From the NCBI RefSeq assembly GCF_024700885.2, contig NZ_CP117016.1: 64,000 bases of DNA. The stretch is one strand, 5' to 3'. A program made the position numbers and the translations under genes. Source of the DNA: Escherichia coli (lineage in GTDB: Bacteria > Pseudomonadota > Gammaproteobacteria > Enterobacterales > Enterobacteriaceae). The notes below the pieces were generated by a model, which saw only the letters and a list, made by a program, of their open reading frames with translations, did no database searches and was not told the DNA's origin. Numbering within the stretch: the first letter of the stretch is position 1; every line of letters starts with the position of its first letter. Of this stretch, positions 57,780 to 58,114 are shown one piece after another.

Positions 57780-57791
57780 CTTGTGCCTCTA

Positions 57792-57841
57792 AAACATAGC
57801 CTTTGCTATGTTTCATGCTATGCTAAACGATAATGATTATC
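57792..57841. promoter_or_regulatory. mntH promoter operators: MntR palindrome and Fur box
   Basis: AAACATAGC-CTTT-GCTATGTTT perfect inverted repeat (57792-57813), then GATAATGATTATC Fur-box-like sequence (57829-57841), 13-60 bp upstream of mntH. Confidence 0.6.
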
Positions 57842-58114
57842 AAATTCATTTAAATGGGTTGTGGTGATTTCTCTGATAGACCAGGATTATGACTACGAAA
57901 AGATTGATGACTTGAATGTTATGGTTATGTTTAATGTTAGCACATTTACATAACTTTCAGCTTTCATACACAACATAGCAGAAATGTATGACAGCTCACT
58001 ATTTTTGAAGCTTGTCACAGGACGTCATTATAGTGTGTGTCAGATCTCGTTTTCCTTAACCATGTTACATAGAATGTGCACGGAAATTTAACCTGCCTCA
58101 TATTTGGAGCAAAT

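Follow-up and report, generated by a model that had tools for sequence, protein, structure and literature searches.

The intergenic DNA between mntH and nupC of Escherichia coli poses a simple question: which of its bases gate manganese import, and by what kind of element are they read? MntH is a manganese importer that E. coli turns on under iron scarcity or hydrogen peroxide. In the 64-kb stretch of E. coli chromosome analyzed here (the window; all coordinates are window positions), mntH and nupC diverge from a gap of exactly 335 bp (57780-58114), whose limits, set by the ATG codons at 57779 and 58115, had been placed without error in a first-pass annotation of this DNA. That annotation had also singled out, next to mntH, a perfect inverted repeat and a Fur-like sequence, and had read the pair as the arrangement expected for dual repression of mntH by manganese through MntR and by iron through Fur. 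Our answer, given with high confidence, is that the segment 57783-57890 is the regulated mntH promoter, on the minus strand, and that the Fur box and the MntR palindrome within it are separate metal-repressor operators. Documented here are the sequences of these elements and how they lie with respect to the predicted promoter, as well as their uniqueness, their conservation and the recurrence of the MntR motif at other promoters; the regulation of mntH by MntR, Fur and OxyR is drawn from the literature.

As a confirmation this brings nothing new to biology. The MntR and Fur operators at mntH are an already known regulatory region and textbook biology, and the adjacent pair is a classic case of one promoter controlled by two metal sensors. 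That Mn-MntR and Fe-Fur repress mntH and that OxyR induces it is described repeatedly (Martin et al. 2015; Porcheron et al. 2013; Bosma et al. 2021; Uppalapati and Vazquez-Torres 2022), separate MntR, Fur and OxyR sites have been assigned to the E. coli promoter (Bosma et al. 2021), and repression by Fur has been measured with an mntH-lacZ fusion (Beauchene et al. 2015). What is gained is a validation of the first-pass motif recognition and a set of exact window coordinates for annotation; in the literature searched, no paper was found that quotes AAACATAGC together with MntR. Beyond the scope of the first-pass annotation, the locus also yielded a candidate OxyR site, a rare allele of the Fur box, the overlapping small gene ypeD and a published riboswitch claim for the mntH leader, each of which is taken up below.

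Predicted operators in the mntH promoter

The putative MntR operator lies at 57792-57813, where the arms AAACATAGC (57792-57800) and GCTATGTTT (57805-57813) form a 9+9 inverted repeat, 100% complementary and 4 nt apart across the spacer CTTT (57801-57804), which is to the base the perfect repeat that had been described. On the mntH strand it reads AAACATAGCAAAGGCTATGTTT, an inverted repeat with the core ATAGC-N4-GCTAT that overlaps the predicted (unmapped) promoter of a manganese-homeostasis gene. Allowing up to 3 mismatches, the pattern AAACATAGC-N4-GCTATGTTT has this sole match in the whole 64 kb, where shuffles predict 0.03. Palindromic form as such is a poor guide: generic perfect 9-bp inverted repeats with a short loop occur in 22 registers (about 11 hairpins) in the window against about 3 in shuffles, they are mainly G+C-rich and terminator-like, and at a spacer of 4 alone 0.4 would be expected. 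It is the specific sequence, the position in the mntH promoter and the conservation of this palindrome, not its form alone, that mark it as non-random.

The promoter scan that places the palindrome predicts a -35 hexamer TTGATA (57838-57843, minus strand) and a -10 hexamer TAGCAT (57815-57820, minus strand), a 9/12 match with a 17-nt spacer. The palindrome starts 2 nt past the predicted -10 and ends 12 nt short of the mntH ATG, a span of roughly -5 to +17 of the predicted promoter, with the mntH Shine-Dalgarno sequence AGAGG (57786-57790, minus strand) directly 3' of it. Upstream, the predicted Fur box (57829-57847, minus strand) is the 19-mer GAATTTGATAATCATTATC, which agrees with the consensus GATAATGATAATCATTATC at 16/19 positions; at up to 3 mismatches that consensus likewise has a single match in the window, with 0.05 expected. 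The predicted -35 TTGATA falls inside the box, as does part of the 17-nt spacer. The box also contains the Fur-like 13-mer that the first-pass annotation had located 15 bp beyond the MntR palindrome, and which is indeed there: GATAATGATTATC, at 57829-57841, is itself a 6-1-6 palindrome. An information-theory model had predicted a 2-site Fur cluster at -56 of the K-12 mntH start (Chen et al. 2007), a position that maps to window 57835, the center of this 13-mer.

From this anatomy a steric mechanism can be proposed, with a start point that we infer at about 57806-57809. Fe2+-Fur bound to 57829-57847 would cover the -35 and part of the spacer and so keep RNA polymerase off the promoter. Mn2+-MntR, a dimer of the DtxR family, would bind 57792-57813 with one helix-turn-helix per half-site of the core YATAGC-N4-GCTATR, and, lying over the predicted start and the early transcribed region, would block open-complex formation or promoter escape. 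The sites are distinct, with 15 bp between their edges, so that either metal should be able to repress alone. On the activating side, oxidized OxyR would probably bind 57854-57890, at about -46 to -82, and recruit polymerase. The candidate site there reads ATAA-N7-CTAT-N7-ATCA-N7-CCAT on the mntH strand, a weak 12/16 match to ATAG-N7-CTAT-N7-ATAG-N7-CTAT; no other match of at least 12/16 occurs in the window, and the site contains the conserved block CTATCAGAGAAATCA.

The obvious standard for these assignments is the K-12 mntH promoter (Patzer & Hantke 2001), the same locus, where mntH likewise diverges from nupC. The 22-bp palindrome, the -35, the -10 and the Shine-Dalgarno sequence are identical in K-12 and in the window, and 6 of the 335 intergenic positions differ, among them 57831, in the Fur box, and 57824. 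By our own conversion the palindrome corresponds to 2512722-2512743 and the Fur box to 2512759-2512777 of K-12, in U00096.3-like numbering. The comparison with the K-12 operator that the first-pass annotation had recommended has a divided outcome: the position of the Fur site agrees with the -56 cluster, but the 13-mer is one base off, K-12 and most E. coli having GAGAATGATTATC (G at 57831, 15/19 to consensus) where the strain studied has T. This T lifts the match with the consensus from 15/19 to 16/19 and makes the 13-mer a perfect palindrome, so the "perfect" Fur box is natural but rare, an allele that differs from the K-12 reference sequence. By exact-word megablast with 30- to 40-mers, which is not a full census and resolved the base in about 3490 of 5426 complete genomes (those left over carry further variants inside the probe), T was found in 44 E. 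coli genomes and G in at least 3443. The T allele stands on at least 3 E. coli haplotype backgrounds and is the state in Salmonella enterica subsp. arizonae and diarizonae; it may have arisen by recurrent mutation or by recombination in the direction of the Fur consensus.

Conservation and recurrence of the motifs

If these are binding sites for conserved regulators, how far do they extend beyond this strain? Within the species the locus is nearly universal. A 501-bp probe around the mntH/nupC gap finds a match in 5424 of the 5426 complete E. coli genomes, with 100% identity in strain 1190, and a 40-mer around the palindrome is found exactly in 5185 of the 5426 and with one base off in a further 199. 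For the family we compared the mntH loci of 80 species of Enterobacteriaceae taken from one reference-genome scan, 81 sequences including the window, from genera that include Escherichia, Salmonella, Citrobacter, Enterobacter, Klebsiella, Kluyvera, Buttiauxella and Kosakonia. Every one of the 80 species has the palindrome ahead of mntH, with no more than 3 mismatches; it stands at -31 to -35 of the ATG in 79 of them, and the remaining one has it at -50. Its left arm AAACATAGC shows no variation across the 81 sequences; changes are confined to the outer right arm, namely G to A at position 19 and changes at positions 21 and 22. Perfect palindromes account for 22 of the 81, another 42 have the right arm GCTATATTT, and the rest have 1 or 2 more outer-right changes. 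Around it, the Fur core TTGATAATCATTCTC is kept across genera, the -35 hexamer is conserved in at least 95% of species, GAGGCA (Shine-Dalgarno) is found in nearly all, and the -10 hexamer varies as TAnnnT (TAGCAT, TAACAT, TAATAT, TAGCTT and others), as a -10 element should. Upstream of about 57890 the DNA cannot be aligned between genera.

The palindrome also recurs where an MntR operator should. The literature lists dps, mntP and mntS as MntR targets. With up to 3 mismatches allowed, the pattern has one match in a 7.5-kb stretch of K-12, 46 nt upstream of dps (0.01 expected); a 3.5-kb stretch holds two, and these both precede mntP (0.00 expected). The K-12 mntS promoter has a copy with 4 mismatches. 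The five K-12 sites (mntH, dps, two at mntP, and mntS) have the core YATAGC-N4-GCTATR in common. The sites at dps, mntP and mntS differ from the mntH palindrome at 3 to 4 of 18 positions and have other spacers, and that of mntH is the only perfect palindrome of the five. The mntP sites lie far upstream of the gene, and reviews have MntR inducing mntP. Position 4/19, where C or T is paired with G or A, varies among the sites of the K-12 MntR regulon and varies likewise among species at mntH; since the variation across species matches the variation between sites, it mirrors what the protein tolerates, which is the behavior of a protein-recognition site. These other operators of the E. coli regulon (dps, mntP, mntS) are reportedly the subject of earlier work (Waters et al. 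2011; Yamamoto et al. 2011).

The repressor itself belongs to a well-defined family. E. coli mntR is present in 5421 of the 5426 genomes; its product is a repressor of the DtxR type (Pfam PF01325 and PF02742), whose structure has been solved (2H09). MntR and DtxR of gram-positive bacteria (Bacillus subtilis, Corynebacterium diphtheriae) are of the same family, with the same two domains, and E. coli MntR finds relatives in the Protein Data Bank, 1ON1 among them, at E 3e-17. The logic is alike, a metal-loaded dimer on a palindrome that overlaps a promoter, but E. coli MntR is only distantly related and the recognition sequence differs, so that the likeness we draw is one of logic and not of DNA motif. 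Much closer is the Salmonella enterica mntH promoter (Kehres et al. 2002; Ikeda et al. 2005), where the perfect palindrome is the same and stands at -34 of the ATG. The Fur core there, TTGATAATCATTATC, carries the same A (T on the plus strand) as the window, whereas the flanks of the 19-mer differ (GCACTTG... as against GAATTTG...). There the order of elements is said to be OxyR, then a Fur motif overlapping the -35, and then an inverted repeat between the -10 and the ribosome-binding site. This is another species, and the experiments were done there and not on the allele of the window; Mn2+-dependent binding by MntR, and loss of Mn repression upon mutation of the site, are reported for Salmonella and for K-12.

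Taken with the -56 cluster of Chen et al. 2007 and the published regulation, the presence of the palindrome in all 80 species and its recurrence at dps, mntP and mntS bear out the proposed arrangement for dual MntR/Fur repression of mntH. Some points weigh against it nonetheless. The regulated mntH start is predicted and not measured, and the K-12 transcription start site (TSS) data of Kim et al. 2012 hold no start at about 57808, where the regulated promoter should initiate; this would be expected if that promoter was repressed in those cultures, which is not proof. The mntR gene lies outside the window, and its presence in this strain is taken from the species as a whole. Moreover, the spacer AAAG is unchanged in 80 of the 81 sequences, though other MntR sites have different spacers. 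The invariance of the spacer is a sign of an extra constraint beyond MntR, for example the context of the start site or a role in RNA.

Coding, RNA and chance readings of the same DNA

Could the conservation, then, have another cause? The least credible of the alternatives is that chance alone put the palindrome and the Fur-like 13-mer into A+T-rich intergenic DNA. Intergenic DNA is indeed A+T-rich, and the abundance of generic 9-bp inverted repeats given above, with 0.4 expected at this spacer, shows how readily the bare form arises; the specific motifs, by contrast, are each unique in the window against expectations of 0.03 and 0.05, both are conserved in 80 species, whereas no alignment between genera is possible upstream of 57890, and the palindrome motif appears again at dps, mntP and mntS. 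Chance is in effect refuted by the conservation data. Very improbable too, though a little less so, is the notion that what is conserved is a small protein and not a pair of protein-binding sites. RefSeq annotates ypeD (29 aa in K-12) across 57849-57760, and its footprint (57760-57849, minus strand) overlaps the Fur box, the palindrome and the mntH start; its translation has been detected by ribosome profiling, and putative homologues have been reported in Salmonella and Citrobacter koseri (Stringer et al. 2021). In the strain studied, however, a TAG interrupts ypeD at codon 9 (57823-57825), the result of a single-nucleotide polymorphism at 57824 (T here, C in K-12) that turns TGG into TAG and leaves an 18-codon open reading frame (ORF) from the ATG at 57816, and at least 1023 genomes of B2-type E. 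coli have TAA at the same codon. Across the 80 species the start, frame and length of the ORF differ and many have no ORF, while the DNA of both boxes is fixed; the "conserved" peptides MNLIIIL and KHSKGYV result simply from translating the Fur box and the MntR palindrome; and both ypeD ATGs lie upstream of the predicted regulated start. Coding constraint as the cause of the conservation was rejected, the frame not being kept where the boxes are fixed, and the reported conservation of ypeD may instead be a by-product of operator DNA.

A more serious rival, which we still regard as unlikely, is that the palindrome acts mainly as RNA: a terminator-like hairpin in the mntH leader, part of a Mn2+-sensing OFF riboswitch that ends transcription at high Mn. 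In reviews, the mntH leader is credited with a terminator-like Mn2+ riboswitch, which is attributed to Shi et al. 2014, in Salmonella. The bases for it are present in the window: sense-strand RNA from 57830 to 57770 is predicted to form a hairpin of 11 bp (-18.1 kcal/mol; z = -4.35 relative to shuffles), and CATAGC occurs twice (57821-57816 and 57810-57805), with GCTATG and then TTTT after it. In the Salmonella element, which reportedly uses the same bases (CAUAGC...GCUAUG, then U's), GCUAUG is said to pair with either of two copies of CAUAGC; we take these copies and GCUAUG to be the palindrome arms and the hexamer over the -10. Such an RNA-level mechanism needs an upstream start, and weak ones are on record. 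Two K-12 TSSs in the supplement of Kim et al. 2012 (5 and 11 reads), at 2510875 and 2510914 of U00096.2, fall by our own conversion of coordinates at 57926 and 57965 on the minus strand, -147 and -186 from the ATG. Transcripts from either would include both operators, ypeD and the full hairpin, the whole of the proposed element. The invariant AAAG would be the loop of that hairpin, and MntR alone does not account for it.

Several observations speak against the hairpin as the main function. A transcript from the predicted regulated promoter begins within the left arm, so that in this mRNA the hairpin cannot form. Nor are changes in the arm compensated: G to A at position 19 gives a C-A mismatch in mid-stem in 59 of the 81 sequences, and the changes at positions 21 and 22 are likewise unmatched. 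The upstream "first copy" is CATAGC in 8 of the 81 only, ATAGC is wholly lacking there in 39, and the position varies as the TAnnnT of a -10 element. For that reason the "first CAUAGC copy" was rejected as evidence for a riboswitch, behaving across species as the -10 hexamer. The stem has 3 G-C pairs and holds U's within it, in place of the G+C-rich stem and free U tract of an intrinsic terminator, and a terminator scan gave no terminator-like site here, the U run being part of the stem with only 4 T after it. The Salmonella riboswitch is not in Rfam and finds no covariation support in the 81 sequences; scanned across 57600-58300, Rfam gave no match at E of 1 or below, the yybP-ykoY Mn2+ riboswitch included. 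By sequence comparison the hairpin finds no support as a conserved RNA element, and a role in RNA is better seen as a possible extra layer for upstream-initiated transcripts than as the main function.

That extra layer can be carried further, into a multi-layered operator in which a leader from the upstream starts (57926, 57965), with ypeD and a hairpin set against the Shine-Dalgarno sequence, adds MntR-independent control at the level of RNA or translation. We hold this to be even a little less probable than the riboswitch. If it were true, the rare pair of polymorphisms in this strain, one making the Fur palindrome perfect and the other putting TAG into ypeD, might make repression by iron tighter and change any leader-dependent control over manganese import. 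The ypeD and hairpin observations are modest in themselves, and they could interest curators of small proteins and of riboswitches.

The nupC side and neighboring features

The regulated mntH promoter takes up only one end of the gap, and the first-pass annotation was right that the divergent nupC promoter is served by the same DNA. The K-12 TSS 2511031 (8 reads; Kim et al. 2012) maps to 58082 on the plus strand, 33 nt before the nupC ATG at 58115, and the sequence TAGAAT at 58070-58075 would be its -10, the two (58070-58082) marking the side of the gap that holds the nupC promoter. Near 58034-58049 a CRP-like sequence, 3 mismatches from TGTGA-N6-TCACA, was seen by eye, and we make no claim for it. 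A further plus-strand start in K-12, at 2510716, falls inside the mntH coding region (Kim et al. 2012). The 8-mer half-site AACATAGC has a second copy at 57972-57979, about 180 bp from the operator. This copy sits in the loop of a 12-bp inverted repeat, 92% complementary (57959-57970/57985-57996, AGCTTTCATACA / TGTATGACAGCT), and over the -10 region of the weak start at 57965, in DNA that is not conserved beyond Escherichia.

The mntH coding sequence (56541-57779, minus strand, ATG at 57779) encodes an Nramp-type Mn2+/H+ importer of 412 aa (Pfam PF01566, E 2.6e-128). Compared with K-12, MntH here has the substitutions V304L and W391C. Trp 391 lies within a G-W motif that is retained in the commonest variants of the segment among the 80 species, so that a Cys here, in the last membrane segment, is unusual. 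Downstream of mntH there is an IS3-family element of 1433 bp (55005-56437), annotated as IS1397 in the identical strain 1190 and absent from K-12. IS1397 targets palindromic units of the repetitive extragenic palindromic (REP) type, and here it occupies, flanked by TAG on either side, the loop of such a REP/palindromic unit, which is located between the 3' end of mntH and ypeC.

Two palindromes elsewhere in the window deserve mention in their own right. Beyond nupC (58115-59317, plus strand), a G+C-rich perfect hairpin, AAAAGCCGGGGATCATTCCCCGGCTTTT (59330-59357), lies between the convergent nupC and pdeA, with runs of A and T on either side, and resembles a bidirectional intrinsic terminator. 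A perfect 22-bp palindrome, AAGCATATTTATAAATATGCTT, at 32534-32555, is of a kind (11+11) expected about 0.015 times by chance per 64 kb. It falls inside a minus-strand ORF of 394 aa, which we take to be a yfdE-like CoA-transferase, and there encodes ...KSIFINMLK....

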